Both the position numbers and the translations under genes were made by a program. Of a stretch of 64,000 nt of DNA, positions 6,458 to 63,325 are shown piece by piece (the first letter of the stretch is position 1; every line of letters begins with the position of its first letter). The notes below the pieces were generated by a model that did no database searches, was not told where the DNA came from, and saw nothing but the letters and a program-made list of their open reading frames with translations. Source of the DNA: Amphiscolops sp. MND2022 (taxonomy: Eukaryota); contig OZ076409.1 in NCBI GenBank assembly GCA_964187785.1, positions 18,354,001-18,418,000 of the forward strand. Direction: 5' to 3'.

Positions 6458-8522
6458 TTCATAACTAAAACGAAAGAGGTGAAGAGACCTGTAAATTGAA
6501 GTTGAACCAAAAACATTGTTTTTCAATGCGATTTTTTTGCGGCGATAATTCTTTCAAGGCGATATTCGTTTTACGCCTGGAAGGTCAGGAGTTGAAGACA
6601 GACAATATTTTATATACTTCGCGATTTGATTGAAAGAGCTTAGTCAAGTGGTCCCGAGCTACAGCCTCTCTGTGGTGCCATTCTTTGTGAAAAAAAATAT
6701 ATATTGATAGTTTGAACGCACTTTAATCAACACGATCGGAAGGTAGCTCAGACTTTTGTAGGAAGTCAAACGAAATATCCAAACAAAATGAAATGTCCAA
6801 GTTTAGCAGATAATTCAGGTGGTTATTGAGGTCACAACAGAGTATCTAAAATCATTATTGCCCAAAAAGCCAATAGCTTGTCAATCTAATTCATGACTAC
6901 TGCCACTCTTAATGCAAAAATTAGACTCCCGAGTTCTGGCGAAGGGAAGAAAATGCCATGTTCCAAAAACTATTTACTTCAATAAGGCAAAGCTTAACAG
7001 AGAAGCAATGATTTATAATAAAACGTAGGATTATATTATACTGAGTGAGAAAAATAACTTCAGGACAAAATAGCACCGTTTAGTTAAGCTTCCATTTTCT
7101 CACATCTTTTTTGAATGGAACTCGAGACGTGCACTTTTCACAAATCACGCCAGCCAAGTCTTGTAAAGATTACGTCACTGCAGTAAAAAGTGACGACACT
7201 TGGCAACTCACACTTGACAAAAAGGGAAGCACCAGAAACGTTTCCGACTGAATTTCCCGACTCAGATCCAACATTGAAAGGGTATTCGGGTACTTTGGTT
7301 GGTGTTTAAGAAAAGGTTCGTTCTTACGTTTTTTCATCACAGTTTTTTGGTAATTCGAAACTTTTATCACTCACTCATATTATAAAAACATTCACCAAGC
7401 TTCGTATGTATACAAGCTTTTGAATTCAACGAAAATCACAGCATTTTTTCAACTAAACATGATTCTTCATTCCAAATATACATATGCATCATTTCAGCTT
7501 ACAGGAAACATGAAAACTTCCTTTCTTTCTTAAATTCGAAGTGAAACCATACACCCTTCAAAGGTTTCTGGAGATACATAAATTAGAGGAAGGGGCGGGT
7601 GGGCTTCTGAGGTGTACAAGGACAGGACAAGGAGTATCATTAACCAATCACAGACTGTACAAAATTAGTGAACATCTATTGGTTTGCATTGGGTCGTTGC
7701 ATAGGTAGATAGCATCTTGTTTTCAATAATAATAACAACAAAACAACATTTTCATAGCCAGGAAGCCTAAAACAGTATCATTAAAAAATAGCAGCAGAGC
7801 AAGACAAACTCCACCACTGGGTAGCTCCTGTGATATTGGAAAAAGATCAGAAGAGCCCATCATACTGGGGCAACAAGAATTTCATCCCAGATGAAAAACT
7901 GCCGCAGTTACAATCATGTCAGAGTGGTAAAGCTGCATAGCGTCTTGTTGCATTACGTAATGACAGAGAGGACTTTCATCACATCCGTCCCCTATTTATG
8001 TTTGTTTGTTTGGTGTAGCAGTATTCAGTTGGTTATCATTATGAAAAGTTGAACATTGATGCGTTTCAACGTCATTAAAAAATCCCACTTCAAGGGAAAA
8101 TGTTTGCCAAGGAAAATTTCGTAGTAACATTCGAGATTATTTGTCAAGTTCATAATGGTTTGTACCAGCAAATTTTTCTAAACATTTCGTTGAGTTTAAC
8201 ATTATCTTTAGAGTAATTACCTTTAGAGTACCTGTCAGAAAATTGACACAGGCTTTTCTCATAATTTCGAAACGCATTCAAGGATTACAGTAAAAACAGT
8301 GTGATATTGCGGCAAAGCAAAAAGTCATTATTGCGCAAGGTAGTCATCAACGTACAAGTCTTGGTTCAAGTCACGAACGCACCCTAATTCCATTTTTGAT
8401 TGGTGCGCAGTGGGTGGGTATTTACAGTGAGGGCAAAGAGTTGGTCGAGGTATAAGGTACTGTCGCTGTTACTCACTCAACACAAGACAGCGACTCCAAA
8501 TTGCAACAGCTCCGCTCTTGGT

Positions 8523-8581: not shown

Positions 8582-8958
8582 CTTTGAATAAACAGAAGAG
8601 TTCAGGTTTGGAAATAAGGTTTGTTTGATTCAATTATGGTCTACCCTCCGCTCCAAAACTAAAAATCGACATTCATGAAAACCCTAATGTCCTATGCGTT
8701 ATATCGGGACAATTAAACCTGATAAGGTTCACAAAAGCGTTGAAAAACTCAGTTGTATGAAACTGGCCAAAATTAAACAATTTGGAAGAAAAAAGGATAG
8801 CGTATTCCAACGGGTAAAAGCCGCAATTTAAAAGCTCGAGGGCGGCTTCTCAGAATAATATTTTTGGACAAATTCGGCTTCTATTTGAAGTGATACGGTA
8901 TGCTATAGATATGCTCTTCCACTGACAGCCTTCGTTTAATCTGGTTGAAAAGGCTAAC

Positions 8959-9241
8959 CATTGAAATCGTTTCTCCAGTCAATGGCAGCATCTAAATTAG
9001 CAGGTGACTCGTCGTTGCCTTCACTGAGCATGGAAATGACGCTGAGGATGATGGTCTCGGCAGTGTGCACCGGGTTCCACCGCTCGGAGGCAGCCTCGTA
9101 CCCGAAGCTGTCTTCGCCGGGCTCGTGCAAGATGGAGATGCAGACATCGCCCTCTTTTGAGATGTTAGGGTGCCACATCTGACTCACGAACTTCATCTTC
9201 GGAGGTCTCAGGGGGTACTCCTTGGGGAAATTGAGCACAGC
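8959..9241 (-). CDS. UBE2G1: UBE2G1-like E2, exon 2 (catalytic Cys and acidic loop)
   Basis: FPKEYPLRPPKMKF...WHPNI...VCISILHEPGEDSFGYEAASERW; acceptor tttgaag at 9242, donor gttagc at 8958. Confidence 0.93.
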
Positions 9242-9840
9242 CTTCAAACATGCATCACAAAACTAGCTTCATTGGAACTTACCATCGAAAGATCTTACTG
9301 AATTAGTGCACTATTTTGCACAAGATTTTGACTGTAAAACGGGTTGCTTAGTAATCAATATTCACAATAAACACAACCAACGAATTATAACAGCCAAATT
9401 TATGACAATGAAATTCCAACAGGTGGGAAAAATCATTTGGGGAATATTAAGGTAGGGATACAAAATGTACACGACATGGCTTCAGACGTTATTTCCGAGA
9501 ACGACCTACCCTTGACTTGACTTTTCACTTCCCATGTGGCATGTCCCCCTTTTGACTCGTTACACTATGCTCCCCTAGAGAAAAAATGTTACTGGCTCAT
9601 TTTTATTTATCTCTTAATCAAAAATTTTCCCATGCTATTCTGCCAATAAATTGATCTCTCTATATATATCGACACTTTTTATTGGCTCTTATTATTAAAA
9701 TCCCCACTCAGCCAATCAGAAGCGTTGATATATGACAGATCTGGGCTATTAGAATTAGTATTAGACTGTTTGAAAGTTTTCACTTTGTCCTCCCCTTTTG
9801 CTATGTTTGACTGTAAAATTTGGTGTTGTCAGTGAGTTAC

Positions 9841-10026
9841 CTTGAACATGCCTCCCTCGTAGAAAGTGTCGGGGGGCCCAATGATGATCACCTCCCACTT
9901 GAAGAAGTCGTCGTCAATGAGCCCAGCCGAGAAGCCCTCAACAGGGTTCTTGAGCATGTTCGTGTACTCGCGCTTCAACAACAGCATGCCCTGAGTCCCG
10001 TCCCTCGGTCTTCTTTCGGCCGACAT
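9841..10026 (-). CDS. UBE2G1: UBE2G1-like E2, exon 1; spliced protein 175 aa
   Basis: KNPVEGFSAGLIDDDFFKWEVIIIGPPDTFYEGG; ATG 10026; donor gtaact at 9840, phase 0. Confidence 0.92.
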
Positions 10027-10751
10027 GTCCGCAGGCTGCGACGGCAAGTCCTCGATCAACTTTTTATTTGGTTTTTCAATTAAAGCTAAATTAATTTTTG
10101 GTTTTTCAAAATCACTACAGCAGCTAAAAGCGCAGCTCAAAATCTGAAAGACAAAAGCCAAGTTAAACTTTGATACAGAAGCGAAATTGTTGTTTCTGAA
10201 GGACGGGTTATAAAAACCGGTTTATGTAAGTTCAAAACATCCACGCTAGCAAGTATGAAACTCCTAATTGCCGAATCGAGCCGTTCCGAGAAATAGGTCC
10301 CTCCTGGGTTGTAATACTTCTGCTTTAGGCTACAATAACAAAACGCAGAAATATCAATAATTCAATAATGCCGCTAAAAATGGTTCACATTGAAAACCTG
10401 ATTACATTGACCAGCGCTGGTACTTTGACAGAAAACCGTCCGAGGCTAAAGTTTCAGTTTATATTTCGATAATCAGAAAACACTAATCTGATGTCTCATT
10501 CAGAATTCAGTTCACTAAAATATTAATAAAAGCCGAAAAGCGATGGTCCAGAACTACCACCCCTTGACAGCTTGCCGAGTTGGTATTTCAAATAAGCGGA
10601 TCAATCATATGTTTAAACTCGCAAACAACTATGTTACCGTCTAACCATTGTTTCTTGTTCTATGGAACTCATATTCCGATGCAAAAGTTCCATCTAATTA
10701 AGAAATATACTAAGTAACAAGCAGCTTGTATAAAACTCACAGAAATTTACA

Positions 10752-12065: not shown

Positions 12066-12378
12066 CTGAAGCATTCATTTCATTTATACACACGGAACTA
12101 TTAAATTTCAAATTCGACAAAATTTTATACTACTTTCAATCAAGTATTTAGTTCCTCGACAAGAATAATCGATTTTCAAAACAGTTCATGTGAATTGAAA
12201 GAAAAAATGACGGAAAGACAACGTACATTTCGTTTAGGACTGACTGCATGTACGCCATGTACGGCGCTTGATTAATGCAACTTGATCGTTTTCCATATCT
12301 GGCGACCAGCGTATATCTTCATAAAGATTTCTAAACTTTAAAGCGTGAAAAAAAAACATTTGGCGTGTGATTTGTTAC

Positions 12379-12633
12379 CTTGAATCGAGAGAAGCGTTCT
12401 GTGTATGCTAAGGTCTTCGAGAAAACTTCACTTGGAATCTGGAACTCATCGTCATGTTCACTTTGACTTTCACGATGTTTCAAAAGGGTGTAGACTTCGG
12501 AAATCAAAAGAGTTTCAGCCTCTGCGAATTCTTCAGGAAACTGCAACTCAGCAGCATCTTCCTCAAACTCTCCTTCAACACTGGGCTTGTTTGGATGAGA
12601 ACTACCAGAAGCAACATCGCCGAGATTACTCAT
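12379..12633 (-). CDS. POLR2D: RNA polymerase II subunit RPB4, exon 1; spliced protein 152 aa
   Basis: [24 protein letters not shown]...[16 protein letters not shown] 12633; donor gtaaca at 12378, phase 0. Confidence 0.93.
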
Positions 12634-12989
12634 GTCTGAAATGATCCTACTTCGGATTCTTTTCCATTTCGAATGCTGAATATGCATTGACTGATAAAAA
12701 GACACACATTTTTGAAGACTACTGGGTGTATCACCCCTCCCCAACACGACGAACAACTTACCACGACAATAATGACGGAGACTATTCAAAGCGTCGAAAA
12801 TTTTCGAAGTATTTAAAGCATCGAAAGAATCCCATAGCACCGATATGGAATAATATCTGGTCAAAATTTTTGGATGATCCTTGAGCGACCTGGATCTACC
12901 AAAGATGAAAATACCTTTATTTTATGTTATATGAGGAACAAGCTAAGGTATATGTAATATTCTATTACGATATCAATTAAATCCGAAAT

Positions 12990-13588: not shown

Positions 13589-14027
13589 GAGTGACAGCAA
13601 TAAAGTCGAACGACTAAAGTCGAATTTGAACCGTATAACTAGCGTCGAAGTTCCATCGTCGACGGACTTATGACAAAGTCATTGCGTCTATGTCATTGCA
13701 AATGTAAAATGGTCAAACAATGTTTTGGCCGTCGGATATGCCCCATTTCCTCTTGGCCCCGCGGCCCCTTGGGGCCGCTTATGTTCCCATCTTGCTGACG
13801 GTTCCCATCTTACGACGGTGAGGGTGAGCGTGCAAACACAGTATATGACCCCATATTAGATGGGGAAAAGTACCTAAAATATTTTTTGAACCTAAAATTT
13901 TTATTTGACCAAATTCGACAAGAATTCGACCCAATTCTGTTCGACTAAATTCTACGCTATTCATTCGACGATATTCATCTACATTATTCAATAGACGAGT
14001 CAAAATTCGACTTCATTGCCGCAAACC
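13589..14027. mobile_element. MULE-like MITE family a (GTCGAA arms) with internally deleted shared core
   Basis: TIR gagtgacagcaataaagtcgaa / ggtttgcggcaatgaagtcgaa; diverged 8 bp TSD gtcaaatt/gacaaact; core remnant at 13733-13857. Confidence 0.7.
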
Positions 14028-14039: not shown

Positions 14040-14544
14040 GGCTGCGTGGAATCAGGTCTAATGAAATAGATCTAAGAGAGGGGGCAAAACTGAGATCTAA
14101 ATAAATTGATCTAATTAATCAGGTCTAAAAATCTCACCTAATGTGATCTAATTTGAGAAAAAAAATGAGTCAATTAGGATCTAAAACTAAAAGGTGATAT
14201 AAAGTAAAAAACGTGCCTCGGATAAGTCCCCATTTCCTCTAGTGCCACGCGGCCCCTTGGGGCTGCATATATTACATCTTGCTAAGCGAGGCTGAACAGG
14301 AGCGAAGACCTAGCGGGTACGGAGATTGCGAAGCGATCGTAGTGGGAGCTGGTCTTTGCGTTGGTGAGGGCGAGCGTGCATACACCGCATATGCCCCACA
14401 TTATATTTTCGCTTTCAGAACACATATTAGATCATAAAGTGGTTGGACTTAAGTATTTCAGTTAAAATTAGATCTGATATTTAGACCTAACAGTTAGATC
14501 TAATTCCATTAGACCCAAGCAGTTAGATCAGAGGCGTACACTCC
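14040..14544. mobile_element. MULE-like MITE family b (AGATCTAA arms) with shared core
   Basis: Perfect 9 bp TSD aaactggac (14031-14039, 14545-14553); GG..CC termini; core at 14211-14402 (+). Confidence 0.85.
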
Positions 14545-14711
14545 AAACTGGACATCTCTGGGCAAACTATTTACCAAGGCAGTTATTCAGTAGAAAAAAC
14601 TTTGTTCACATAGTTGAAGCTTCCTTTTTCCGTGTTCGATTTGGATATCACCGGATGTTCGCAGTGTATTCGGGGATTCTTGAGGAAGAAAGAAGATAGA
14701 TGGATCGAAGT

Positions 14712-16035
14712 GGCTTCAAGTCATATTGCTTAATGCCATATTGCTTAAAAATCGACCATGTACGAATTGCTTAAAATTTTTTAAGCAATATGGACATCAT
14801 TTTAAGCAATATGGACATCATTTTAAGCAATATGGACATCATTTTAAGCAATATGGACATCATTTTAAGCAATATGGACCTAGTACAGTACAATATGGAC
14901 CTTAGGTCTAATATGATCTAATAGGTCTTACGATCTAATATGTGTTCTGAGTATGATATGTGTCGTATGGAATTAGATTTAACGGTAGGTCTAACTTTCA
15001 GATCTAATTTTATCTAGAATACTTACGTCTAACGCCTTTATGATCTAATATGTGTTCTGAAAGCGAAAATATAATGTGGGGCATATGCGATGTATGCACG
15101 CTCGCCCTCACCGTCGCAAAGACCAGCTCCCACTACGATCGCTTCGCGATCTCCGTTCACGCTAGGTCTTTGCTCCTGTTCGACCTCGCTTAGCAAGATG
15201 GGAATATAAGCGGCCCCAAGGGGCCGCGGGCCACTAGAGGAAATAGGGACATATCCGAGGGGATGCAGGTCATTTCGCCTAATGCCATTTCGCCTAAAAA
15301 TTTAGTTGAGTCATTTCGCCTAAGAAAATTAGGCGAAATGACCAAACGGGAATAACGTCTAAATAATCATGTTTCGAAAAAGGCTTTCTGAAAGCGAAAA
15401 TATCAAAATGTGGGGCATATGCGGTGTATGCACACTCGCCCTCACCGTCGCAAAGACCAGCTTCCACTACGATCGCTTCGCGATCTCCGTTCCCGCTAGG
15501 TCTTTGCTCCTGTTCGACCTCTCTTAGCAAGATGGAACATAAGCGGCCCCAAGGGGCCGCGGGTCACTAGAAGGAATGGGACATACCCGAGGCACGTTTT
15601 CTATTTTATATCACTTTTTAGTTTTAGATCTTAAACGATTTATTTGTTTCCCAATTTCATGTGTTTTTCACGTTTCTGAAAAAAAATTAGGCGAAGTGAC
15701 CAAAGTAAAAGACGTTTCGCCTAAAAAAATTAGGCGAAGTGACCAAACACGTTAGGCGAAATGACTTTAGGCGAAATGGCATTAGGCGAAATGACCATTT
15801 CCCATCCGAGGCACGTGTTATAAGTGTCACTTAGATCCGACGCATTACTCGATTCATCACTCATTACTCAACGTGGAAACACATCCATATTGCTTAAAAA
15901 TTATTAAGCAATATGTCCACAAAATTAAGCAATATAGCATTATCCATATTGCTTAAAAATTATTAAGCAATATGTCCCCAAAATTAAGCAATATGGCATT
16001 AAGCAATATGGAATTAAGCAATATGTCTTGTACCC
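14712..16035. mobile_element. MULE-like MITE family c (CCATATTGCTTAA arms) with shared core; contains nested MITE d
   Basis: 9 bp TSD gatcgaagt (14703-14711, 16036-16044); TIR ggcttcaagtcatattgcttaa / gggtacaagacatattgcttaa; five copies of a 21 bp unit at 14779-14879; inverted copies at 60296 and 62007. Confidence 0.92.
15261..15803. mobile_element. MULE-like MITE family d (TTAGGCGAAATGAC arms) with shared core, inserted into the core of MITE c
   Basis: 8 bp TSD atccgagg (15253-15260, 15804-15811); about 30 bp TIR ggtcatttcgcctaatgccatttcgcctaaa; core at 15407-15597 (-). Confidence 0.92.
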
Positions 16036-17411: not shown

Positions 17412-20400
17412 GTCTCGGGGGACTAGCTTGGCCTTCCAAGCAGATAAAATATTTTTTTAGTAAAAAGTATGCTTCAGTGAATTCAGAGAATGAGGGGTAA
17501 ATAAATAGGAAGAAAGTAGCTCCTTAGGCCGACTAACTGTGGCCAAGATCCGGCAAAAAGCAGGAAAACACCGTCAAGAGAAAGCTCGAAATCTTTGGAA
17601 CATGTTATGAAACCTGTCATATTTTAATTGGTGGAGAGATAATTCAGGCAGGAATTCCCAAATAAAATCAATTCAAGATCAAATATATCATCATCAAGAA
17701 ATAACTGCGGATAAAAGTTCAATCATTTGGCATCATAATGCATTTTTGCTATTTTTGCTAGTTCCAGGAACTTTTTGACGAATTGAGAGCATTTGGGCTT
17801 CTGTGTGGAACTTTCGTTGTTAAAAATTTTTCTATTTGTGACATGCTCAAACTAGAGGAGGGAATAACGTCTAATGAATAACGTCTAAAGGTCCATCGGA
17901 AATAACGTCTAGAGGAATGACATCTAAACTGAAATATTAGGGAATAACTTCTAAACAGGGGAATAACCTTTAAAAAGAGGAATATTGTCTAAAATCAGGA
18001 AGCCTCTAAATTGGAAGAAAAGTCCAAAATATCAAAAAACCAACATAACACGTCTGAAAAATAGGAATAACGTTTAAAATTGGGAAAAACGCCTAAAATA
18101 TCCAAAAATCATTAAAATTCGTCTAAGAAACGGAAAAACGTCTAGAGTTGGGAAAATTCAAGTCAATCAAGAACTAAAGCTATAAAGTTGTTCAAAGTAT
18201 AAAACGTGTCTCGGATATGTCTCCATTTCCGCTGGTGCCCCGCAGCCCCTTGGGGCCGCCTATGTTCCCACCTTGCTAAGCGAGGTCGAAAAGGAGCAAA
18301 GACCTAGGGGTACGGAGATCGCGAAGCGATCGTAGTGGGAGCTGGTCTTTGCGACGGTGAGGGCGAGCGTGCATACACAGCATATGCCCCACATTATGAT
18401 ATTTTCGCTTTCAACAAGTCTGCTTTTGCAGATGTAGACAACTCCGCCCTTACGTCGGCCTTCGATGATTTCGAATTCTGCCATGTAGTCTAAAAATAGT
18501 CAGTTTTCAACGCGGATACTTTTCAAAATCAATTTTTTGAACATTTCCCTTTCTGGAATAACGTCTAAAAAACAGGGATAACGTCTAAAAAACAAGAAGA
18601 AAGTTTTAAAAAAACGGGACAAACGTCTAATTATTTAGTCGTTATTCCCGAAAAACGATTTATATTTAGACGTTATTCCCGTTTTGAACTCTGACGTTAT
18701 TCCTTAGACATTCTTCCCGGCCGCCTGCTCAAACACTCGCTCTCCTTGATTCAAATGAACAAACAAAACATAGCAAAGTGATTAGATTTTCAACTAGATT
18801 AAAGTATGTTTTTTAAATGACGGGTGAGACATCAGACAGGGGAAGTGTTTTGAGTTTGTTGACCGGACGAATGTATTCGCCAGTTGATGTCCTCACCTTT
18901 ACAACACGAACAAAATTGTCTGGCCCGCTATACGCATATGACACTCGGGCCAAGGGCCATTGTGAGGGAGCCACGTTGTCGTCCATGAGATATACAACAT
19001 CACCAACCTTGAGATTGCAGCTCTCTTTCCTCCGTTTACATCCTTCCTGGAGAGCCGATACGTACTCTTTTTTCCAACGGTTCCAGAAGTGACATTTAGG
19101 ATACGAGTCCACCGAGCAGTTGCTGAGCAATGTTTCAAATGAGATATCTGGGATGACTGCTCAGTTGGGTAACATTCCAATTTTGATCAGCCTATCAGAT
19201 GCCCAGAAGTCAAAATGACCTCATTTTTCGGGTCGTCTGAGACTAATCTTATGGGTCTTGAACTTAGCACGTTTTCCACTTGGCAGAAAAGGGTGGAGAG
19301 TTTTCCAAAACTGAGAACATTTTTGCCAATTATTCGTCTTAGATGGTTTTTTGCACTCTTAGTCCCAGCTTCCCACAAACCCGCAAAGTGGGGCGCTCGC
19401 GGAAGAATAAAGTCCCATTCAATCAGTAGTCCGGCTGGCACTGATTCTATAGAGTTTTCGATCGTGTCATTAGGTATTTTCTTGTGTTTAATAAGGAGCT
19501 CTGCAAGAGAACCTTGGAAATTCGAGACGTTATCTGAGTTAATAGAAGCAGGACAACGCCTCTTTGAAGGTTTAAAAAAACACGCCTGTGTTGGGAGATC
19601 AGAGACGATCTCCAGATGAACTGCCTTGCTGGCAAAGCACACAAATAGAGACGAGGTATGTTTTTGTGACGTCTTTACGATCACCGCTACAACAACTTGG
19701 GCCTCCAAAGTCCAAAATAACATGTTGGAATGCCTTGGAGGGAACTGTTTTTCTTTATTTAGGCCAATCGCCCATCAACTGTTCAGAACTTGAATTGAAT
19801 CTACAACAAATGATACACATCAAGATAATTTTCCGCAGTTGTTTGCCTCATGCTGGTATTCCAAATAAAGTACGGATTTCAGCTATCGTTTGGATAGTTC
19901 CACTATGCAGAGTTTGAAGATGGGCGTCAAGAATTATCAATCTTGGTAGTTCATTTTTTGCGGAACTATCTGAGGGTACATGGCTTCATCAGGCATTTCA
20001 GCATTGGCACATCGACTGCCTACATGCACTACCTCTTTTTGCAACAATGGATACAATTTAAGGATTCTGTTATTTGTTCGCACCGAATTACACCGTTTCT
20101 GAGACTCATTTTTCTTTTCTCAAGAATCCTTTTCTCTGCTCTTGATTTTTTTGTTTCTTCTTTTATTCCTTCTTGTTTGAATAGAACAAACGTTTCATGA
20201 GTTAACAGCCAATCAGGACCAACCCACCAGATTGACAAATTCTCAAGCTTGGATGGATCCACCAATCTGGACCTTGGCTCTGCTGGATTTTCATGTGTTT
20301 GCACATGATTCCTGATTAAATCTTCGTTCTCTTGAATTTTAGCACCTCGATTGGTTACAAAAGTTGCCCAAACGCTTGGCTCAGAAGCTAGCCGGTTTAT

Positions 20401-23400
20401 AACTATAGTGGAATCGATCAAAGCGTTTTGTGATTGGATTTTCAGACAAATTATGTTAAAGTTTTTGAGGACTGGATTAACCAGTTGACATCCCAGAAGA
20501 ACTGCGCAAAGTTCTAGCCTGGTTATTGATTGTGTTTTTTGGGGGTGCTATTTTGGCTTTTGCGGTGAGTGGAGTCGAACTCCGCCAACCTAGCTCTTCT
20601 TGAGCTACAATAAAGATTCAAGGAGCGTACCCTATCTCTGAAGCATCACAAAACAAAGGCAACAACACGGTATCTGTTTGCTCTATTCTCAACACAAAGC
20701 GGTGTAATTTGAATTGCCTTTCGATTTTGAATTCCAAGATGTAAAAGGGTAGCTTGTAATCCCAGCGGACATTGGTCTGCCAAATACTTTGCATTACATG
20801 CTTCAATTTCAGCGTGACCGGCGAGATCCAACCAACAGGGTCAGAAACTTTAGTGATATCACTAAGGACTTCCGTTTGGTCATTTGGGCATTGTCCAACT
20901 GTTGATCTGACTGCTGAATGTCGAAACTGAAGTTATAATGAAAAAGATTCCAGACAAGGCCTATTTTTTTAATGGTATGGTTTGTGTCAAGAAACTCAAA
21001 TGACTTCTTAGCTTCACGATACTGGGGCGGTAGTTAAAGCGTGATCAACGAATCATTGCAAGTCCACTTTCGCAAGTCGAATTTGTTCCGCTCCAACGCG
21101 CTGATCGAACCTTTTTGCCATTCTTTCGCCTGTTGAACAGACGAAGCTCCCGTCAGAATGTCGACGACATAGAAGTCACGCTTTATAGCTTCTTGAACGA
21201 CGTTTGTTACGTTTGGCTGCTTAGCGCACAGTATTAATGCTCGAATGGAATGATAGGATGCTGCGGCATTTTAGTACGGTACCCTAGTCATGCGAAGAGT
21301 TTGAACTTGATCGCCAGAGTATTCTAAGGAAGTCATATCTTGTCGATTTAGATCAAAATGTCAATACAATTTAGAACTGTCCGCGATCATAGCTATTTCA
21401 AAGAACCTGAAGCGCACGAGAATACTGAAGAGGTCATCTTTTAATTTCCGACCTATGCGTAGACAGTCATTCAGAGAACGCCCAGATGTTGTCTTTGCGC
21501 TGGCGTTAAAGACGACTCTCAATTTTGTGGTTGTGCTGTCTGGTTCATGGACACAATGATGAGGGAGATAAAAACAATTAAGATTGTCTGATTCATTTTC
21601 GGGAACCAGTTCTATGTGGCCAAGGACGACTATTTCTTGTATGAATGCAAGGTATTCCATTTTGAGTTCAGGATTGGCATTTAGCTTGCGCTCGAGACTG
21701 AAAAAACGCTTCAAGGCGCTTGCTCTGCTGTGGCCTAGTTTGACACCATTTGACAGAAACGGAAGTTGGACTAAAAACCTGCAATCTGGCTTCTGAATAT
21801 TTGTGTCATCAAAATGTTTTTCACAGCCTGCTTCTTCTGCAGTCAAATGTTTCTTGATTGGTACGTTCTCTAACTCCTAAAACTACGATAGGATGTCATC
21901 CGTGGACTCCGGAGAAACTACAGAAACATTGATACTAATGGTATAGTCAGGTGGAACGCTCACTTTTTGACGGGACCAGATACTGCGCAATTAAAAAGTG
22001 ATTCTCGAATTACAACTTCATTGTTTCGGATTCGACTTTCCAGAAAAATGTTTTCGAGGACGTCAGCGCCAAGAAGAATGTCGATTTTTCCCGTATTGAT
22101 GAAAGTTGGGTCTGCTAAAACAAGGGTTTTCACATATTTAAATTGCGAAATATCATAATGCTCCATTGAAAAATTCTTCGTTTTGTTAGGAATGATGTGC
22201 AGACTAGTGTCAATGAACTGATGCAGCCGAGTGGGTAGAAAGTCCAGAGTTTTTTGGGCCCCTGTGGCACCTAGTGGACTGATTGGCGTTTGCGTCCGGA
22301 TTGTTGTCAGCATCAATGCTTTCGCGGTCGACTCTGTAATGAAACTAGCCTGTGACCCAGAATCAAGAAGTGCTTGCATTTGAATGTCTTTTCCTGATTG
22401 ATTTTGAATTTTGACCAATGCTGTTGAGAGAAGAACATTGTTGGTGTTTGTGGCTTTTACGGCAACGCCTTAAGCAGGTTGACTCCTTTGCGCCTCGTTG
22501 CATTTGATTTCACGTCACTTGTGGACACTCTGCCCAAGTTAGACTGAGCATTCTTTTACGACACGAATTTTTGACTTGATGCTGTAGAAGGCTTTTCCCG
22601 ATGTAAAAATGAATGATGCTTTAACTTACTTTCTCTGCAAGTAAATTTCGAAGTACATGCACCAACAAGTTGACCTGGATGAAGACAGTTGAAACAAATT
22701 TATTTTTGTTGTGCAAACTTCTGTCGATCAATAGCAGACAATTTGAGAAACAATGGGCAAGATGACAATATATAACATTCCTGACGAGTATCACCACAAA
22801 CACTCACGACAGTGTATGATTGAATGTGCTTTTGATTCGACTGGGTTTTTGCGGAAGTCGGATTTTTGGCGTGTGTCCACTAATTTTGCCAAGTCTTTCC
22901 ATTTCAGGAAATGAGTTCGCTGATTAGCTACCTGCCATTGCTTGCGAGACTCACCATCAAACTTTTCGATGATCCAAAAGATCAATAGAGAATCCAACGA
23001 TTCAATGGGTTCGCCTAATTCGGCTAAGGCTCTCAAATGTTGGTTGGTTGCTTATGAAAGTTTGCGCAAGGCAACGGCAGATTTACTTCGCATGGGGGGT
23101 TGCGTCCAAATGGCTTTCAGATGGGGCTGGACTAAGCAACGCTTGTTTTCGTAGCGTTCAATAAGTAATTTCATAGCTATTCCATAATTAGCACCAGGTA
23201 TTGTGACAGATGCTATAAGCTTGGCATCATCGCCAACCAAGCACACTAAACATTTCATCTTTTCAGAGTCGCTCAATTGGTTGTTGACATCAACTGATGC
23301 TTTGAATTGATCAATGAATGACATTCATTCAGTATACAACCCAGTGAAACAGGGTAATTGAAGTTGAGGCAGTCTCATTTTGCTGGTGGAACCTGAGTTT

Positions 23401-25765: not shown

Positions 25766-25812
25766 CTTCGTTCAAGCCAGTGACTTCAATTTTGATTAGA
25801 CAAAGCAGAATC

Positions 25813-26259
25813 GTGGTATACTGATTGACAAAACAACTCTACAATCAATTTGGATCAATATTTGGCTGGTATAACGAAACCTCCCGATTTGGAACTGATT
25901 TGGAGTATAAATCGCGCCTCTGATATGTCCCCATTTCCTCTAGTGTCCCGCGGCCCATTGGGACCGCATATGTTTCCATCTTGGTAAGTGACGTCAAACA
26001 GGAGCAACTACCTAGCCGGAGAGGAGATCCCGAAGCGATTGTAGTGGGAGCTGGTCTTTGCGAGGCTGCGGGCGAGCGTGCAAACACCGTATTTGACCCC
26101 ACTTTACTTTCGATAATATATAAAAGCACAATAGCAGTCGACCTGTGTTTGTCGATCCGCGGTTTCTCGATCAATGTCGATCACACTTGTCGATCAGAGT
26201 TTTGTCCATCGTTGTCGATGAAAAAGTTTTCGATCTTTTCATTCGATCAGTTTACCCAC
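25813..26259. mobile_element. MITE family f (GATCGA arms) with a diverged shared core
   Basis: Ends gtggtatactgattga / reverse complement gtgggtaaactgatcga; core at about 25913-26103 (+); no TSD seen. Confidence 0.6.
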
Positions 26260-29200
26260 TTTCGTTCAAGCCTACTACCAACGCAAGATCATGCGACACA
26301 GTATGGAGGAGAAAACATTCGATTACCCAATCTTGGATGATTCCGAGATATCCTCCCGTGCCCAACAGTACAGAACCTCTTGACATATATCTTTGCGCAA
26401 TCGAAATGTACGAAAACAGTGTGTGTATTTCCCACAGAGCAACCTACACTGAATTGAATGCCTATCTTCCCGGGCCATACACCTCAAGTCATTGTTACCT
26501 AATGCTACCACCCAAAAATTCCGTTGACAACCGTGAAACAACTATGTCATTTGACTTCCCAGCTAGAAAAGACCAGAAAACCCATGGAATTAAACATTCT
26601 TCAGACAACCTTCAAGGAAAGGTCCTTAGAGAGGACACTATGTAAAACAATCAGCATTGAATTGACTATCTTGACTTCTGAAATCCTAATTCATCACCTT
26701 TCGCAACTGCGAACATAAGAAAAATGTCAAAGTAACCCAACAAACAACACACCGATGGTTTTCGCAAAATAGCATCTCCGCGATAGGGTACCTATTGGAC
26801 GTTCAAAACGTATTGATGACCCAATAATAACCTATTTTACAAACGATCCTATCTGACCCTATGATAAAATGGACACTTTGCCACTGCTACTGAGAAAATA
26901 GATAAAATTCGTAAATGAAATTTAACTTTACAGATACGATTGAACGTGTACTACACTATAGGGTGATAAAAAAGCGCGCAGCTGCAGAAACATGAGAATA
27001 AACTTCATCTTTCCATTTGCCATTTTTTTGACCTCAGCCAACAAGTTTCTGCGAAAACGGCAACTTTCCCACTGCTACTTAGATTAAACAGCGCGTATTG
27101 ACCATTCCCATGTTGCTCTTCGTTTCCACTAGCTGATACGGTGATAACGGAAACGCTTCTCCGCCAAAAAAAAAACAAAATATTTACCCTGCATGATCGT
27201 AAAATTCGAACTTTGCCACACCTTTACCATGAACTGGCAGCATCAAAATTGCAATTTTAAGCTCAATGGTTAGCATAACTTTTTAGCTAGGCCATAGGAC
27301 ATCTGGAAAATTCCTACCAAACAAAAACCCGTCTATCCGCTACGAGGCACTAGTCTGTCATTGAGCAGTGAATCTCTTTTTGTTGGCTCCTGACCGCCTG
27401 ATCCTTTTTCCCTGCACAATACGTAAACCGTTGATCAGGGTACCTATTGAAGGCTTTTGATTCCATACCAACAGCTTATGACTCAGTATGTGCCGTGTTG
27501 TTGCACTCGTTACCAGGAGTAACAGACAAAATTAAATGAACTGTTCGGGCAGGTAAACGCACTGTATCCCCCGGCTCCCCTGGCGCAATAGGATAAATTT
27601 TTATCACGCCCGTGAATGAGGTCATTTATAAACTGCTGAAGATGTGTACTCTCTGGCCTCTTGAATACTATAGCAGCTGACCTGGAACGCGGTCTGGCAA
27701 AATCACATAACCTGCGCCCGAAGATGCAACAACTTCAGTGGGTGGTTTAATGTCAGCGTGAAAACCATTTAGAGAATTTCCGGTACTCGGGGAGCAGAAT
27801 TGATTCAACTACAGTATGATGTTTTACATAAAAATGACAACCCCGCGCACAAGAGCAACCTCTAAGATTTGTGCCGCTACTGACACAAAAACAGCACTAA
27901 TTTTCCAGCACTGAGTTTGGCAAAACTCCAGCAAGAGGTTGATTTTTTCCTTACACAGTCTGGAAAAAGGTAAAAATAGCAACCACAAATTCAGAATTGC
28001 AACCATTTGACCATCAAAAAATGTACAATGTAATTAATTTACCTGCAAAAAGATAAAACAACTTGATAAGATCTCTAATTGCATCGAAGACAAACTATAT
28101 GAAAAAGTAAACCAAATTTCGACTGACAAGTTTCTTTGTTATGATGACGATGATCGCCATTTCGAGAAACAATACAGCTAATATCCATGAAATAGGCATG
28201 TCTTTCAGGGGGCCAATTCGAACAAACCACAATCCACTGGACATTTTTGCCTGTGCTGTCGGCTCTGGACAAGTGGCATCTTTCGCCGGCACGAAAATGA
28301 TTTCGCGACCTCCCTGCAACATTGCGGTCCCATCGGGACAACACAAAAACTTTTACAACTGAGAGACAATTTTATGGACACAGTTCAACGAAATAGAGGA
28401 AAAAATAATGACGTGTACTGAATTGATAACGTCCAAATAGGAAAATCACTGACGCGACACTACTCTTTGTTCCGGTGATGAAACAGCTACATGTAAAAAG
28501 ACGTCTTTCAGAAAAAATTTGTTCCACAGATTGATAAAGTTATGAATACGACCATTTTCATTGTTGCACGTGCGTCAAACCATAATTTCAATTTTTAACA
28601 GTGACAAACAGCTAACAAACACTGCATTATTGTTACCACAAGCAATTGGTGTGCTTAGGTTCACTAAATTCCCTCCCTACCAAGTTCATTTGCTGCGACA
28701 AAACGGAAGATTACTTATAACGGAAGATTATTTTAACATTGACAGGAAACACCCAAGCAAACTTTATAAGGTAAAAATACACCGCATTCTTTGGGACAGA
28801 TTTGAATGTTGCCCCCAGTACGCCTAACAATTACTACTCTAATGATACCTGACGAAAAAGTCAGTTTGGACAAAACCGAGTTGGACAAAACCGACTTGAC
28901 TGCTACCTGAGGATATTTTGACTGCTAGCCATACAATATTACATTGCCACACCCCGCAACGCACAATGTCAACATTATCATAGTTCAAAGAACCTCATTT
29001 TCACTCCAAAAAAATTCTGCAATAAAAAATTCTTACGACTGGCAAAAGTTACAAAAATCAGTCATTGGTCATAGTGTGCATCTGCCGACCCAACTCATAC
29101 CTTGCTTTCGATTTTTCGAAGTCATCAACACAACCAGTGCAGCTTCAGAATAGCAAATTACTGAGAATGTTTTCCACATATCACAAGAACGCAGTAGAAA

Positions 29201-33535: not shown

Positions 33536-34266
33536 AGAATGAAAAGTTCTAAACTCTCAAAAGTTTTCTCGAGGATGAATCATCGGTTCATTAATTCGAA
33601 AGCGTTTTCAGAATCAGTTTCATGATTACGTTTTTTTTGGGCTGGATTCTCTCCGTCAGACATCGGAGAACATGTGAGGCCAATTCAGCGCCTTTTTTGC
33701 TACACCTTTTTGTCGACTTCCGTATCTTGTTTGACTTGATTCGAAGACATAGTATGCGGTACAATTTGCGGATAACCGGCGTAAAGTAACGCCTACAGCA
33801 ACCGGCGATCTCTTCCATCGGTCTTTTTAGCGCAAATGATTTCGCACCAAAGAAGATCGAGAGGTACTTTTCCCTCGCGAGTCACCTTCATAAGAATGGA
33901 TTTGGCTCGGAGAAAATTAAATCCAGGTTGGCCGTTCGTTTTGGCAGGCATATCTTTCAAAATGCGAGTACAATATTATCCAAATCCACACTAGAACCGT
34001 TAGGAAAATGCACAAGAGTTTTTTAAACGGAGACCTCAGGGGTTGAAAATTAGTTGACAAAAACAACCAGCACAAGTGGTTTGCCCAGGTGCAGCGACAC
34101 ACCATTAAAATAGCGTCAGAGATGTTGACCAGTTGTCAACAATTCAAACCATTGCCATCTCTGAAGCTATTCAACAAGCCTTCAATAGGCTTGAGTTGGT
34201 GTTTAACAACCAATTCGAAATCTTTCAATTTTATCTCCAAGTAAAGACCAGCTCCCTTTATGATTG

Positions 34267-34765
34267 ATTCGCGATCTCCGTTCCAATGCACGTTTTAGTT
34301 TTTAAGTCTTTACCATATCAGGGATAACCTCCAAAAAAACAGAGAAAACGTCTAAAATTTAGAACCTAGTTGCGATTCAGGAACTGGCAAGCTCCAGATC
34401 TTGGATATGAAAATTGTCATTTAGACCTTAGTTCTTTAGTTACAGAAGTGCGTTTCGATCTAATTCCTTGGATCGCAAGTTGTGCCCACTGCATTTAGCG
34501 CACTGAGGGTTTGTGAAGATAGCTAACTACGTTATGATGAAGATTTTGACAAATTCTGCCACGTGTTTCTAATGCAGTAGTTTTTAGCCAAGTGGTATGA
34601 AGCCGGAAAACCATACCCAAGACGTGTGGTTTGAAAAATTATGCTAAGTGAGCAAATGCATTAGGCCAAATGAGGTCACAAGTCACAATAATTCGGCTTA
34701 AATTCTGTGTCGAACCATTTGGCCTAAAGTTCTGAGGCAAAATGACTACAATTTTAAACCAAGTG
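34267..34765. repeat. Decayed remnants of the MITE core and of the arms seen at 58869-59195 and 61189-61410
   Basis: ttcgcgatctccgttcc core fragment; gtgcgtttcgatc...gttgtgcccac and gacaaattctgccacgtgttt match reverse complements of the 58.9 kb and 61.3 kb sequences. Confidence 0.65.
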
Positions 34766-35639
34766 TATTCTAATTCAAGGAATGGCTCAAAACACTTTTT
34801 CGAGACCAAAACAGGATTGACATTTTAACGAAGTTTTAGGAAACAACGAAAAAAGTAAACGTGTTGCTAAAGGTTGGATTCGCTAAGCAGCAATCTTGAG
34901 GCATGGCTATACTGCATGTCACTCTGCTTCATATCAGTCCTCCTTTTAGGGCTCTAGGTGTATGTGAACATAGCAGACTATGTTGTCACAATTTTTCCGA
35001 CAAAATCTGACACGCAGTTTCAGCTTAGTGAATTCGTTTCGATTTCAAATTTTAACCGCCCAGACTGCAGCATAAACGACAATTTTGCTGTTTGAGAGCC
35101 AATTTTCGTTTTCTGCTGTTTGGTAGTTCGGTGGTTTGGGAATTCAAAATATTAGACACTGTCGTAGTTCTCAAAAACGCAAACAGCACAAAAAGCACTT
35201 CACCAAATTGAAAACTCACATTGCAGTTGATTTTCCTAATTGGGCAGCAGAATATGGCGTGAGAAAATATCAACTGTCTCTTTCAAAAGCAAACGTGACT
35301 GCAAAAGCTTTAACATGTAAAGCTAATTAGAGTGGAATCTTTTTGACAACGGTGTATTCCCAAATAACATAAGCGCAATTTTTATAAAATCTAAATTAAT
35401 TTCGAATAACATAAAAATCAAATGAACTCGACTAAAAATGAAATTGAAATTGTTTGCGCGAAAATTTCAGTGATTAAAAGTGTTCACAGTTCAAAAGATT
35501 CACTGAGTCATGGAAATTACAGAAAAAATTTAGTCAATTCGATTGTTTAACAGGTTTTTGGTTTTCAGTTGATACTCTATGGTTTTTATTGACAAAAAAA
35601 GAAAGTGTTTCAAACCTTATTATCAACTGAAATTTTCAT

Positions 35640-49720: not shown

Positions 49721-49769
49721 TCATCCTTTCAATTCGTATCACAATTGGTATTACATACATATCAGTTAT

Positions 49770-58370: not shown

Positions 58371-58860
58371 GGCTTCGGGCAAGCAGTTCGATTTACTAAG
58401 TTCGAATTTGAACTAGTGCAATAAGTTCGCATGGAATAGTTTCGAGACACCAAGTTCGAATTTTCATATCTGGCATATCCGGTGTAAACTGGACATCCTT
58501 CACACAAGATCCTGAGAGCTCCACCGCCTAGGATCTGAAGGAATCTAAAAACTGAAATGTGGGGCATATCCGGTGTATGCACCCTCGCCCTCACCGTCGC
58601 AAAGACAAGCACCCACTGCGATCTCCGTTCCCGCTAGGTATTTGCTCCTGTTCGACCTCGCTTAGCAAGATGGGAACATAGGCGGCCCAAGGGGCCGCAG
58701 GGCACTAGATGAAATGGGGAAATATCAGAGGCACGTTTTATACTTAGTTCAAAATTCGAACACAGTGATTCGAACTTTTTCCGGTCTTTGGAAAATTCGA
58801 ACTTAGTCCATTCGAAATTAAAATTCGAACTTATGCGTTCGAACTTACTAGTGTGCCCCC
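58371..58860. mobile_element. MULE-like MITE family g (TTCGAA arms) with shared core
   Basis: TSD ccctatat (58363-58370, 58861-58868); core at 58556-58736 (-) lacks the GCGAAGC hairpin. Confidence 0.8.
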
Positions 58861-58868: not shown

Positions 58869-59195
58869 GTGGGCACAAACTACGATCTAAGGAATAAGAA
58901 CGAAACGCACTTCTGTAATTGAAATCTAAGAACTAAGATCTAAATGTCATTTAACTAAGATCTAGAGAATGTCAGCTCCTGAATTGTAACTAGAGTCTAA
59001 GTTTTCTGATGTTATTCCGGTTTTTTCAGACGTTATTCCCGTTTTGGGATGAAATGAACTCCCACACTCTTCATTAGACGTTATTCTTGTTCTATTTAGA
59101 CCTTAGTTACTGTGCATGCTTTTTGAATCTTAGTTCTTTAGATCTTAATTACGAAATTTCTTTAGATCCTATTCCTTAGACCTTAGTTACGCCCC
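58869..59195. mobile_element. MULE-like MITE (CTAAGATCTAA arms), no core, directly adjacent to MITE g
   Basis: Flanked by ccctatat (58861-58868, 59196-59203); ends gtgggcacaaactacgatctaaggaataag / reverse complement ggggcgtaactaaggtctaaggaatagg. Confidence 0.75.
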
Positions 59196-59898
59196 CCCTA
59201 TATAGCTCAAAATGTAATTTTGTTGATTTTAAAAGTCAAAATATTTCTGAAGCGAATACGGCCACTGGGAATACCTAAAAAACGTTTCAACAGACTTGTC
59301 AAGTCTGGAACCAAAGTTTTTTGTTTAGCTCAAATGTCAGAAAAGTCAAAAATTTAGCGAAACCCTCAAATTGGGCCATTTTGACCAATTTTGACAAGGG
59401 AGCGAAGCGAAGCTGAGCGACGTGCCATATGGCCAATCCTCAATGTTGCTACTTGGCGAGGGAACAGGACGTTTCGGCAAAGACGTTTCGGCAAAAAAAT
59501 GGTTCGAGACGTTTCGGCAAATTTTTCATGCCGGAACGTCCCGTATTATCTTGTTTTTGTTTTTGGTTTTCTACAAACTGGTTAGGTCCACCTTTGTTAC
59601 AATACCAGGTTGTATTCTACAATACCAGTTTGTAGAATTCTCGAATTGAAGAAAAACGATAAGACCATTAATGTAGGAATGATGCAAAGCATGAAACGTG
59701 CCTCGGATATGTCCCCATTTCCTCTAGTGCCTCTCGGCCCCTTGGGGCCGCTTATTTTCCCATCTTGCTAAGCGAGGTCAAACAGGAGCAAAGACCTAGC
59801 GGGAACGGAGATCGCGAAGCGATCGTAGTGGGAGCTGGTCTTTGCGACGGTGAGGGCGAGCGTACATACACCGGATATGCCCCACATATCATACAAAA

Positions 59899-60247
59899 GG
59901 GTGGGCGGAAGTAGGTCGAAGGAACGGGATCGAAAATCAGAGTTAGTCCTCAGGTCGACATACCAAATTTTTTGAATAGGATCGAAACAACTCGGATCGA
60001 AATTTTTTAACGTAGTCAGATATGTTCACATACCCCTAGTGCCCTGAATGCAGGAGCGAAGCGAAGCGGAGCGACGTGCCATATGACCATGCCTCAATGT
60101 AGCTACTTGGCGAAAGGAGCGAAGCGACCGAGCCATACAACAAATACGATAAAAATCGACCGCATTCCATTCAATCCCTGCAATTCGATCAAAAGGTTCG
60201 ACCTCTGTCCTTTCGACCAGAAAAATTCAACCTATTTACAGCCACCC
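59899..60247. mobile_element. MULE-like MITE (GGTCGA/GATCGA arms) with a GCGAAGC-rich 90 bp mini-core; duplicate at 61609-61958
   Basis: 9 bp TSD catacaaaa; TIR gggtgggcggaagtaggtcgaa / gggtggctgtaaataggttgaa. Confidence 0.88.
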
Positions 60248-60295
60248 CATACAAAACGTTTCGGCAATTGTTTTTAGCCTGAGACGTTTCGGCAT

Positions 60296-61047
60296 GGGTA
60301 CAAGACATATTGCCTACTTCCATATTGCTTAATGCCATATTGCTTAATTTAGTGGACATATTGCTTAATAGTTTTTAAGAAATTTGGATAATGCCATATT
60401 GCTTAATTTTGTGGACATATTGCCTAATAATTTTTAAGCAATATGGATGTGTTTTCACATTGAGTAATGAGTGATGAATCGAGTAATGCGTCGGATCTAA
60501 GTGACACTTATAACACGTGCCTCGGGTATGTCCCCATTTCCTCTAGTGGCCCGCGGCCCCTTGGGGCCGCTTATATTCCCATCTTGCTAAGCGAGGTCGA
60601 ACAGGAGCAAAGACCTAGCGGGAACGGAGATCGCGAAGCGATCGTAGTGGGAGCTGGTCTTTGCGACGGTGAGGGCGAGCGTGCATACATCGCATATGCC
60701 CCACATTATATTTTCGCTTTCAGAACACATATTAGATCATAAAGGCGTTAGACCTAAGTATTTTAGATAAAATTAGATCTGAAAGTTAGACCTACCGTTG
60801 AATCTAATTCCATACGACACATATCATACTCAGAACACATCTTAGATCATAAGTCCTATTAGATCATATTAGACCTAAGGTCCATATTGTACTGTACTAG
60901 GTCCATATTGCTTAAAATGATGTCCATATTGCTTAAAATGATGTCCATATTGCTTAAAATGATGTCCATATTGCTTTAAAAATTTTAAACAATTCGTACA
61001 TGGTCGATTTTTAAGCAATATGGCATTAAGCAATATGACTTGAAGCC
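60296..61047. mobile_element. MITE family c, 752 bp; duplicate at 62007-62758
   Basis: 9 bp TSD tttcggcat; same TIRs as 14712-16035 in inverted orientation; core at 60515-60707. Confidence 0.92.
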
Positions 61048-61188
61048 TTTCGGCATGTTTTTTTGCCGAAACGTCCGCCGCCATGTTTTTGCCGAAACGT
61101 CCGCCGCCATGTTTTTGCCGAATCATCTTTTGCCGAAACGTCCGGAATCTCTTGGCGAAGGGAGCAAAGCGACCGAGTCATACAACAA

Positions 61189-61597
61189 GGTAAATGGTCA
61201 CTTGGCTTAATGCCATTTGGCTTGAAGTCATTTGGTTAATACAATTGGTCACTTGGCTGAATTTTTTAAAGCTAAGTGTCTCGGGTATTGGTCACTTGTC
61301 TTAAAGTCATTTGACTTAAAACCACTTAGTTGAAAACACGTGGCAGATTTTGTCGAATTTATCTTTATTACGTAGTCAGCGTATTATTATAACAAGTCAT
61401 ATCAAGTACCCCTCGGATATGTCCGCATTTCCTCTAGTGCCCTGCGGCCCCTTGGGGCCGCTTATATCCCCATCTTGCTAAGCGAGGTCGAACAGGAGCA
61501 AAGACCTAGCGGGAACAGAGATCGCGAAGCGATCGTAGTGGGAGCTGGTCTTTGCGACGGTGAGGGCGAGCGTACATACACCGGTTATGCCCCACAT
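61189..61597. mobile_element. Left arm plus core of MITE family i (CACTTGGCTTAA arms); repeated at about 62874-63115
   Basis: Terminus ggtaaatggtcacttggcttaatgccatttgg has the same layout as the family d TIR; core follows at 61411; right arm not in the window. Confidence 0.7.
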
Positions 61598-63325
61598 ATC
61601 ATACAAAAGGGTGGGCGGAAGTAGGTCGAAGGAACGGGATCGAAAATCAGGGTTAGTCCTCAGGTCGACATACCAAATTTTTTGAATGGGATCGAAACAA
61701 CGCGGATCGAAATTTTTATAACGTAGTCAGATATGTTCACAAGCCCCTAGTGCCCTGAATGCAGGAGCGAAGCGAAGCGGAGCGACATGCCATATGGCCA
61801 TGCCTCAATGTTGCTACTTGGCGAAAGGAGCGAAGCGACCGAGCCATACAACAAATACGATAAAATTCGACCGCATTCCATTCGATCCCTGCAATTCGAT
61901 CAAAAGGTTCGACCTCTGTCCTTTCGACCAGAAAAATTCGACCTATTTACAGCCACCCCATACAAAACGTTTCGGCAATTGTTTTTAGCCTGAGACGTTT
62001 CGGCATGGGTACAAGACATATTGCTTAATTCCATATTGCTTAATGCCATATTGCTTAAATTTGTGGACATATTGCTTAATAATTTTTAGGCAATATGGAT
62101 AATGCCATATTGCTTAATTTTGTGGACATATTGCTTAATAATTTTTAAGCAATATGGATGTGTTTTCACATTGAGTAATGAGTGATGAATCGAGCAATGC
62201 GTCGGATCTAAGTGACACTTATAACACGTGCCTCGGGTATGTCCCCATTTCCTCTAGTGGCCCGCGGCCCCTTGGGGCCGCTTATATTCCCATCTTGCTA
62301 AGCGAGGTCGAACAGGAGCAAAGACCTAGCGGGAACGGAGATCGCGAAGCGACCGTAGTGGGAGCTGGTCTTTGCGACGGTGAGGGCGAGCGTGCATACA
62401 TCGCATATGCCCCACATTATATTTTCGCTTTCAGAACACATATTAGATCATAAAGGCGTTAGACCTAAGTATTTTAGATAAAATTAGATCTGAAAGTTAG
62501 ACCTACCGTTGAATCTAATTCCATACGACACATATCATACTCAGAACACATCTTAGATCATAAGACCTATTAGATCATATTAGACCTAAGGTCCATATTG
62601 TACTGTACTAGGTCCATATTGCTTAAAATGATGTCCATATTGCTTAAAATGATGTCCATATTGCTTAAAATGATGTCCATATTGCTTTAAAAATTTTAAA
62701 CAATTCGTACATGGTCGATTTTTAAGCAATATGGCATTAAGCAATATGACTTGAAGCCTTTCGGCATGTTTTTTTGCCGAAACGTCCGCCGCCATGTTTT
62801 TGCCGAAACGTCTTTTGCCGAAACGTCCGGAATCCCTTGGCGAAGGGAGCAAACCGACCGAGTCATACAACAAGGTAAATGGTCACTTGGCTTAATGCCA
62901 TTTGGCTTGAAGTCATTTGGCTTAATACAATTGGTCACTTGGCTGAATTTTTTTAAGCTAAGTGTCTCGGGTATTGGTCACTTGGCGCAAAGTCATTTGA
63001 CTTAAAACCACTTAGTTGAAAACACGTGGCAGATTTTGTCGAATTTATCTTTATTACGTAGTCAGCGTATTATTATAACATGTCATATCAAGTACCCCTC
63101 GGATATGTCCCCATTGGTTGTGATAAACTTGTTGTGATAAACTTGTTGAATAGTTTCAGACTTTTGATTGAATTGATTGATCTTCATCACATCACTGGAA
63201 GCGTTGTGCAGGACCGATCAAGGCTTTCGGGGGATCTGTGGCTCTTCTGTTGGCTTTTCTCACCAATTGGGTGGACCTATCTAGACAATTCTGTTAGTTT
63301 GTTCCAATTTCCTTATGTGATTCCT

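Follow-up and report, generated by a model that had tools for sequence, protein, structure and literature searches.

A core shared by families of Mutator-like foldback MITEs in Amphiscolops sp. and its apparent movement together with pieces of former hosts' arms

In the 64-kb stretch of Amphiscolops sp. DNA that we analyzed (the window, here always meaning the whole stretch), foldback elements made up about 14% of the sequence, and their anatomy identifies them as at least ten families of non-coding, Mutator-like foldback MITEs with differing ends. Most of these families have one ~190-bp core in common between their arms, and comparison of cores, arms and flanks indicates that this core moved between families together with pieces of its former hosts' arms. 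Nesting of elements followed by recombination across the shared core appears to us to fit the evidence better than abortive gap repair as the way in which this came about, though both can act.

Foldback families of the window and their shared interior

The families have inverted arms in which a short terminal motif is followed by short subterminal units in tandem, and their termini share one 22-base geometry (a GG start in 17 of 19 termini and AA at positions 21–22 in 15 of 19). We lettered them in window order as a (assumed to be 13589–14027), b, c, d and e, with F25, G58, K, P, M and J for the others (Table 1). Their arms fall into a group I (c, d, J and P, with a period of 15 bp in c, d and J) and a group II (a, b, e, G, K and M). 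Exact 9-bp target duplications flank b, three copies of c, e and M, and exact 8-bp duplications flank d, P, G and K, the exceptions being the decayed elements a (6 of 8 positions) and F25 (11 bp); a de novo scan for target duplications returned 11 pairs, three of them artefacts of a tandem duplication, versus none in 10 shuffles. These duplications of 8–9 bp set the elements apart from foldbacks of the Galileo/P type, for which 7 bp is expected. No DNA-transposase domain was identified by Pfam in the 137 of the 146 longest frames of the window that were scanned, so the assignment to type 2 foldback MULEs rests on anatomy. Family b sits 12 bp from the end of a.

Table 1. Positions of the foldback elements, cores and arm pieces in the window
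Positions	Strand	Feature	Remarks
13589..14027	+	Family a: old foldback	Older subtype of core (13730-13856), lacking central hairpin; target duplication 6/8
14040..14544	+	Family b: complete foldback MITE, group II arms	9-bp target duplication; donor type
14150..14215	+	Left flank of b, including innermost arm unit	54/66 to d, 53/71 to e
14216..14401	+	Core in b	12/186 differences from consensus
14402..14544	+	b's own right arm	First 116 bp common to family c
14712..16035	-	Family c copy, group I arms	9-bp target duplication; interrupted by d
14901..15073	-	Right arm of b type, a fossil inside c
15074..15260	-	Core in c	Opens with one 8-base copy of d's target duplication
15261..15803	-	Family d, nested in c at core edge, same orientation	8-bp target duplication
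15344..15376	-	Arm piece of e type, a fossil inside d	31/36 to 18649-18684
15408..15592	-	Core in d	8/185 differences from consensus
15593..15657	-	Left flank of b/e type inside d
17853..18725	+	Family e, group II arms	9-bp target duplication; core 18209-18394
25779..26261	+	F25: old element	Older subtype of core at 25917-26103; flanked by an 11-bp direct repeat; arms weakly symmetrical
34240..35000	-	Decayed compound	Contains interior X, an arm of J type with the start of X, an arm of K type and part of a core (34241-34284)
58371..58860	-	G58 element	Core 58557-58731; 8-bp target duplication
58871..59195	+	K58: coreless group II foldback	Back to back with G58 at same 8-bp site
59460..61150	+	P59, inserted in X interior	Core 59701-59887; 8-bp target duplication; hosts M and c
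59899..60247	+	M, inserted just past the core of P59	9-bp target duplication; holds the second interior, X, at about 60000-60145
60296..61047	+	Family c copy inside right arm of P59	Core 60520-60706; fossil block of b type 60707-60879
61189..61410	+	Left arm of J, sister to that of d	Start of X, followed by 30-bp b/d-type flank up to core
61411..63096	+	Tandem copy of 59701-61410, junction in core	Left side of J, core, right side of P; c copy at 62007-62758 included
63097-63115		19-bp core stub after tandem copy

A profile search identified 12 copies of the core (10 near full length and 2 partial), all 12 of them inside foldback arms, in addition to a 19-bp stub. The cores of seven arm types (b, c, d, e, G, P and J) were found to be 3–12 changes (1.6–6.5%) from one consensus, whereas arms were 80% alike or less between families; the cores of a and F25 represent an older subtype. 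A tree of the cores, built with family a left out, was a star in which none of seven inner branches was supported, and therefore no order of transfer can be read from it. Two group II foldbacks, K58 and the element at 2554–2760, have no core, so an element can persist without it. The units of the 2554–2760 element are intermediate between those of b and e, and at 58363–59203, where G58 and K58 lie back to back, three copies of one 8-bp site mark two insertions into the same target.

The core has two neat hairpins, although whole-core folding (z of -0.8 to -1.9 in young copies) was not significant overall, and a conserved RNA structure is not supported for it, as only 2 of 50 pairs had two-sided change, none of them in the two main hairpins. 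With regard to a captured host gene fragment, as in Pack-MULEs, one of its six frames is open, but 1-base indels break this frame in b, d, e and G. Exact-pattern scans of viral contigs, prokaryote genomes and metagenomes identified no related loci (two metagenome matches extended over a 20-mer only), and neither did blastn searches of phages.

A second interior, X, was found in three places: in M (60000–60145), in the host split by P (59399–59459 with 61151–61188) and in the compound at 34 kb (34879–34994). It shares its first ~35 bp with the core, a likeness reached by 0–51 of 1000 shuffles depending on the copy. Interior X is rich in short stable hairpin motifs, and P59 was inserted in one copy of X while carrying another inside M.

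The fairly sharp edges of the core, its hairpins, the start that it shares with X and, in one copy, a direct repeat at its ends (11 of 12 positions, reached in 0 of 100 shuffles) would be consistent with a core that is itself mobile, i.e., a HINE-, SINE- or Crypton-like element that targets these MITEs and drags flanks along. We consider this very improbable, given the confinement of all copies found by profile to foldback arms and the graded length of the shared flanks. HINEs and Helentrons are described in the cited accounts as having 11–15-bp subterminal inverted repeats, a 3' stem-loop near the end and insertion at TT without duplication (PMC4067079, PMC7492417); in the core, inverted matches were 7–10 bp and at chance level in eight of nine copies, and the only one of at least 11 bp, in b, was an arm unit. 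A HINE reading of the core had been prompted by the spacer of J and was dropped once the spacer was recognized as flank of b/d type and the search for subterminal repeats came up empty. Cryptons have terminal direct repeats of 4–6 bp, no inverted arms and a tyrosine-recombinase partner (PMC3212892), and the direct repeat at the core ends was not significant in eight of nine copies. As for a SINE head, the best A and B boxes were on the minus strand and in the wrong order for Pol III, and the core had no Rfam, tRNA or Pfam match.

We speculate, and regard it as a doubtful proposal, that selection among the transposons themselves favors the core as a transferable module acting in cis, one that raises the transposition or survival of whichever arm pair holds it and that swept through at least ten Mutator-like MITE families, displaced its older relative X and left a layered record of its successive hosts. 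Were this so, the core would be a DNA-transposon counterpart of the conserved domains of SINEs, a module parasitizing transposon families rather than the host.

Arm pieces of former hosts beside the core

The sequence-only reading had proposed that c carries about 110 bp of the right arm of b next to its core. The match that it gave is real (97 of 109 columns between 14401–14509 and 60706–60813, with a local score of 155 as opposed to 29 or less in 200 shuffles), and it ends sharply at the boundary that the reading had drawn, but the b-type block in c is 173 bp long (60707–60879). Within 60707–60879 there are seven b-type units on the strand of the right arm and no c-type units, and the left side of c has a single b-type unit. 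In b, this block pairs as an inverted partner with the left arm (48 of 67 positions, 0 of 200 shuffles), and in c it is one-sided; it is thus native to b and fossil in c, and the direction proposed earlier, from b to c, is right. No b terminus or flanking duplication was found inside c, so the block does not represent a complete nested element. In addition, b and c share one core allele and a right junction three bases shorter than that of d and e; b and c diverge by 8% over the core and by 12% over the block, which is not a significant difference. Independent c copies differ by 18–22 of 752 positions and d sits in one c copy, so c and d are young; b and e, each a single copy, are further from the core consensus.

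Both of the flanks attributed earlier to other families in d were also recovered. The left one (15598–15633 as reverse complement versus 14175–14210) matches b at 32 of 36 positions and extends to 54 of 66 from the core edge, and the 15-mer at 15348–15362, said to be a motif of e, occurs exactly three times in the window (twice in e and once in d), its copy in d being part of a 36-column match to the right arm of e (31 of 36). All three shared-flank matches (b with c, b with d, and e with d) exceeded shuffles by a wide margin. The left flank of d also matches e (63 of 88) and, over 15 of 20 positions, the spacer of J (reached by 1–3 of 500 shuffles). The arm of d is closest to that of J (83 of 112 columns), and the other copy of J opens into X, whereas d holds group II flanks; the interior of d was therefore acquired. 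As inside c, neither a terminus of e or b nor a flanking duplication was found inside d, so for both families complete nested insertions with target duplications, which the reading had named as an outcome that would overturn it, were not what we observed.

The left flank of d is closer to b than to e and its right piece is e-type; however, b and e are sisters that share this left flank (53 of 71), and a single donor related to both accounts for d as well as two donors would. Thus, of the order of transfer suggested from the letters, b to c stands, while "b/e to d" may refer to one donor. The J element at 61189, in which an X start and a 30-bp b/d-type flank lead into the core, represents a second case like d. 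A unit of b/K type to the right of the core of G58, which had looked like a further fossil, failed a shuffle test.

We also considered plain descent from one core-bearing ancestor, in which new units advanced along the arms from the ends and left unconverted inner units as relics, with no transfer involved. The single geometry of the termini would suit such descent, as would the ~30 bp to the left and 15–18 bp to the right of the core that are common to b, c, d and e. These innermost flanks point to an extended ancestral interior, and to that extent the objection that shared flanks are part of a longer ancestral core present in all families is correct; the long flanks, however, were not found in all families. 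Descent alone is improbable in our judgment, as the sister-armed families c and d (24 of 30) carry two different group II fossils that each match a living family, d and its closest arm relative J have different interiors, cores differ far less than arms, and recombinants exist.

Some of these recombinants come from other core copies, the flanks of which we read from predicted peptides. These peptides are automatic gene calls on the open core frame, in at least 323 clusters, of which 150 (P0121–P0270) were listed, and are used here as a guide to flanks and not as evidence of a protein; the nine clusters looked up were all unnamed singletons. Copies with insertions are overrepresented in this sample, and any single recombinant may be a local dead end or an assembly chimera. 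Scores for flanks no higher than 51 fall within the shuffled range and were left out of the argument. One peptide, P0256, mirrors the F25 locus. The 3' allele of the core was found to be fixed by the type of tail that follows it (P, 15 of 16; b/c, 8 of 9; the usual tail of the J spacer, 8 of 8; P2, 7 of 7). Among the 150 listed, 30 peptides could be typed on both sides, and seven of these have the J spacer, four with the usual tail and three with a foreign one (G, d or another); in these three the 3' allele follows the tail, placing a crossover inside the core. In P0136 the J spacer is joined to the right side of d, including its e fossil (94% over 80 residues), so this fossil is no isolated case. 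Other combinations include P0139 (M left arm, c-allele core and b-type flank), P0195 (M right arm) and P0135 (the right arm of K adjoining a core), and the arms of M and J occur with either interior.

Within the window all resolved donors belong to the b/e group, and evidence for a chain of transfers comes only from these peptides. In P0246 the core is followed by a b-like flank, P-type units shared with the P2 group and then the right arm of M, and P0243 has the same junction; this arrangement is a two-layer fossil, the best sign of serial transfer, and we conclude that the core was likely transferred serially between families. Insertion near the core was common in this sample: in 21 of the 150 listed peptides a known element end abuts or cuts the first third of the core (0–2 in 20 shuffles), and in 10 of the 150 an element starts at its far end. 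Four peptides (P0133, P0134, P0138 and P0140) have a short P-type element against a c-allele core, with a P-type arm opposite and differing upstream contexts, and the empty allele of M matches the P-type tail of other copies. A single insertion hot spot at the core edge is not supported, since insertions in this biased sample span from ~4 codons before the core to 19 codons into it.

Routes by which the core may have moved

The earlier proposal was that the core was copied with pieces of its previous host by template switching or abortive gap repair; transfer with arm pieces is upheld by our comparisons, but this mechanism is not singled out by them. We give about even chances to nesting plus recombination across the core as the source of the hand-over. 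The arms of non-autonomous Mutator-like foldbacks would set which transposase moves an element, leaving the interior exchangeable. Nesting is frequent: within the window, d lies in c, c and M lie in P, and P lies in X, each with its duplication intact, and among the listed peptides insertions fall at or inside the core. A nested second core would thus lie close by, often in the same orientation (as in six of seven nested or adjacent pairs, which is not significant at p 0.06), and homologous exchange between the two cores, within the nest or between chromatids, could delete or duplicate the intervening DNA and join the left side of one family to the right side of another. A product of the kind expected is the 1.7-kb tandem duplication at 59701–63096, whose junction is in the core and which has produced a J-core-P chimera; its mismatches are denser in the first 60 bases (4–6 of 60 versus 33 of 1650, p 0.04–0.002), although with a gapped alignment this becomes 3 of 60 (p 0.13).

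Were matching arms then to become outermost, whether through two insertions of the same family around a core or through nesting and subsequent collapse, the transposase of that family could move the block. Any donor arm between core and junction would travel along as a fossil, and the inner termini would be lost by deletion in the repetitive arms. The core would in this way serve as a shared recombination platform, and repeated exchange would keep it nearly identical across families. Several observations count against this route: among the copies examined, neither c nor d has an intermediate that still holds an inner terminus; nesting and collapse leaves a one-sided fossil per event, so that d needs two events or a two-insertion composite; and the junction in c, a patchwork of 6–11-bp copies of nearby sequence, fits repair synthesis.

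That patchwork, along with a 13-bp filler at the junction of J and a 4-bp overlap at the right junction of d, is what might be left by interrupted gap repair after excision, in which repair synthesis starts along the arms from either end, jumps to a core-bearing element at an ectopic site and comes back with the core and the flanks of one or two donors. Under such repair the two-sided fossils of d need one event only and inner termini would be missing from c and d, as observed; in addition, captured sequence is described as frequent in non-autonomous MULEs (PMC5499845). The sequence-only reading had suggested a search for microhomology at the junctions, and overlaps of 0–4 bp were indeed found, but they amount to only 1 bp in c and 0–2 bp at the left junction of d. 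These values were taken from lists of match stretches, as automatically called overlaps were confounded by stray matches; a 6-bp microhomology at the left junction of d was discarded when the stretch was found to match group I arms. As gap repair also leaves unexplained both the repeated capture of the same 190 bp and the crossovers inside the core, we consider it a possible but rather unlikely source of the hand-over, and nesting with recombination across the core remains our preferred reading.

Comparison with known systems and other features of the window

MITE families are usually regarded as clonal deletion derivatives of one autonomous element, and in the FB composite transposons of Drosophila foldback ends move foreign DNA between them. 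In the window, by contrast, the left arms, right arms and interiors of many families form a single pool that is reassorted through the shared core, which bears on the birth of new MITE families. Among type 2 foldback MULEs, Muta1 of Aedes aegypti is described as having an 8–9-bp duplication and 12-bp units with 3–4-bp linkers (PMC5499845). As far as the cited descriptions go, Muta1 and Tm1 of Meloidogyne (PMC3169594) resemble the present elements in their 8–9-bp duplications, arms of ~15-bp tandem units, short asymmetric terminal motifs, unequal unit numbers and nested copies, and Tm1-HH has a hairpin motif between its arms (PMC3169594). Each is presented there as one arm family, whereas here at least ten arm types share one interior; the link to them is one of anatomy.

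A closer parallel to the shared interior is Galileo of Drosophila mojavensis, in which, according to the cited account, one central region lies under the ends of three subfamilies, an arrangement ascribed to ectopic recombination (PMC3573991). Galileo is described as a member of the P superfamily, with 7-bp duplications, ends about 77% alike and a swapped region that is its own sequence (PMC3573991); in our case the arm motifs differ more and the families are more numerous. Likewise, the highly conserved domains of SINEs are reported as a middle module under exchangeable ends, with a recombination-hotspot hypothesis for module exchange (PMC5804259), and the SINE V domain is reported within the MER6 MITE (PMC6887750). 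On these accounts SINEs are retroposons whose domains span phyla and MER6 represents one capture, whereas the present core sits in DNA transposons. As a DNA system that is young and of high copy number, it also gives a means of testing, by counts of crossovers, the idea that such middle domains persist as platforms for recombination (PMC5804259). Pack-MULEs are similar in that MULE ends move foreign DNA between them, going by the cited description (PMC5499845). Compared with Pack-MULEs and FB elements, what is carried here is a single recurring non-coding module along with relics of the arms of sister families, and not varied pieces of host genes.

A literature search with narrow phrases identified no report of MITE families sharing an interior or of capture mechanisms, which is weak evidence of novelty. 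What sets the present case apart is its scale and layering, i.e., at least ten arm types, two alternative interiors and stacked arm relics. For repeat annotation, the shared core would merge unrelated families into one, and a chance open frame in this high-copy repeat has generated at least 323 spurious protein clusters that can be used to read repeat flanks.

Outside the foldbacks, the window contains an intronless ACBP-enoyl-CoA isomerase frame (5246–6553) with relatives at ~50% in molluscs, echinoderms, amphioxus and fish, and Pfam matches to exons of a ubiquitin-conjugating enzyme (8957–10221), to an RPB4-like exon (12334–12921) and to broken retrotransposon remnants of Bel/Pao type (about 18800–23300), Gypsy type (42600–44300) and LINE type (52190–52620). 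A 295-codon open frame with no Pfam match (63062–63949) starts within the J spacer and core stub and continues into the sequence by which that core is truncated. A repeat with a tRNA-like portion, present in three copies (32229–32345, 32486–32588 and 56906–57022; Rfam E-value of 0.0004 at 32282–32352), is probably a tRNA-derived SINE unrelated to the core. Finally, local duplications or repeats with 83–93% identity are present at 48047–49229 versus 49758–50926, 53709–54193 versus 54189–54678, and 17413–17840 versus 24734–25152.
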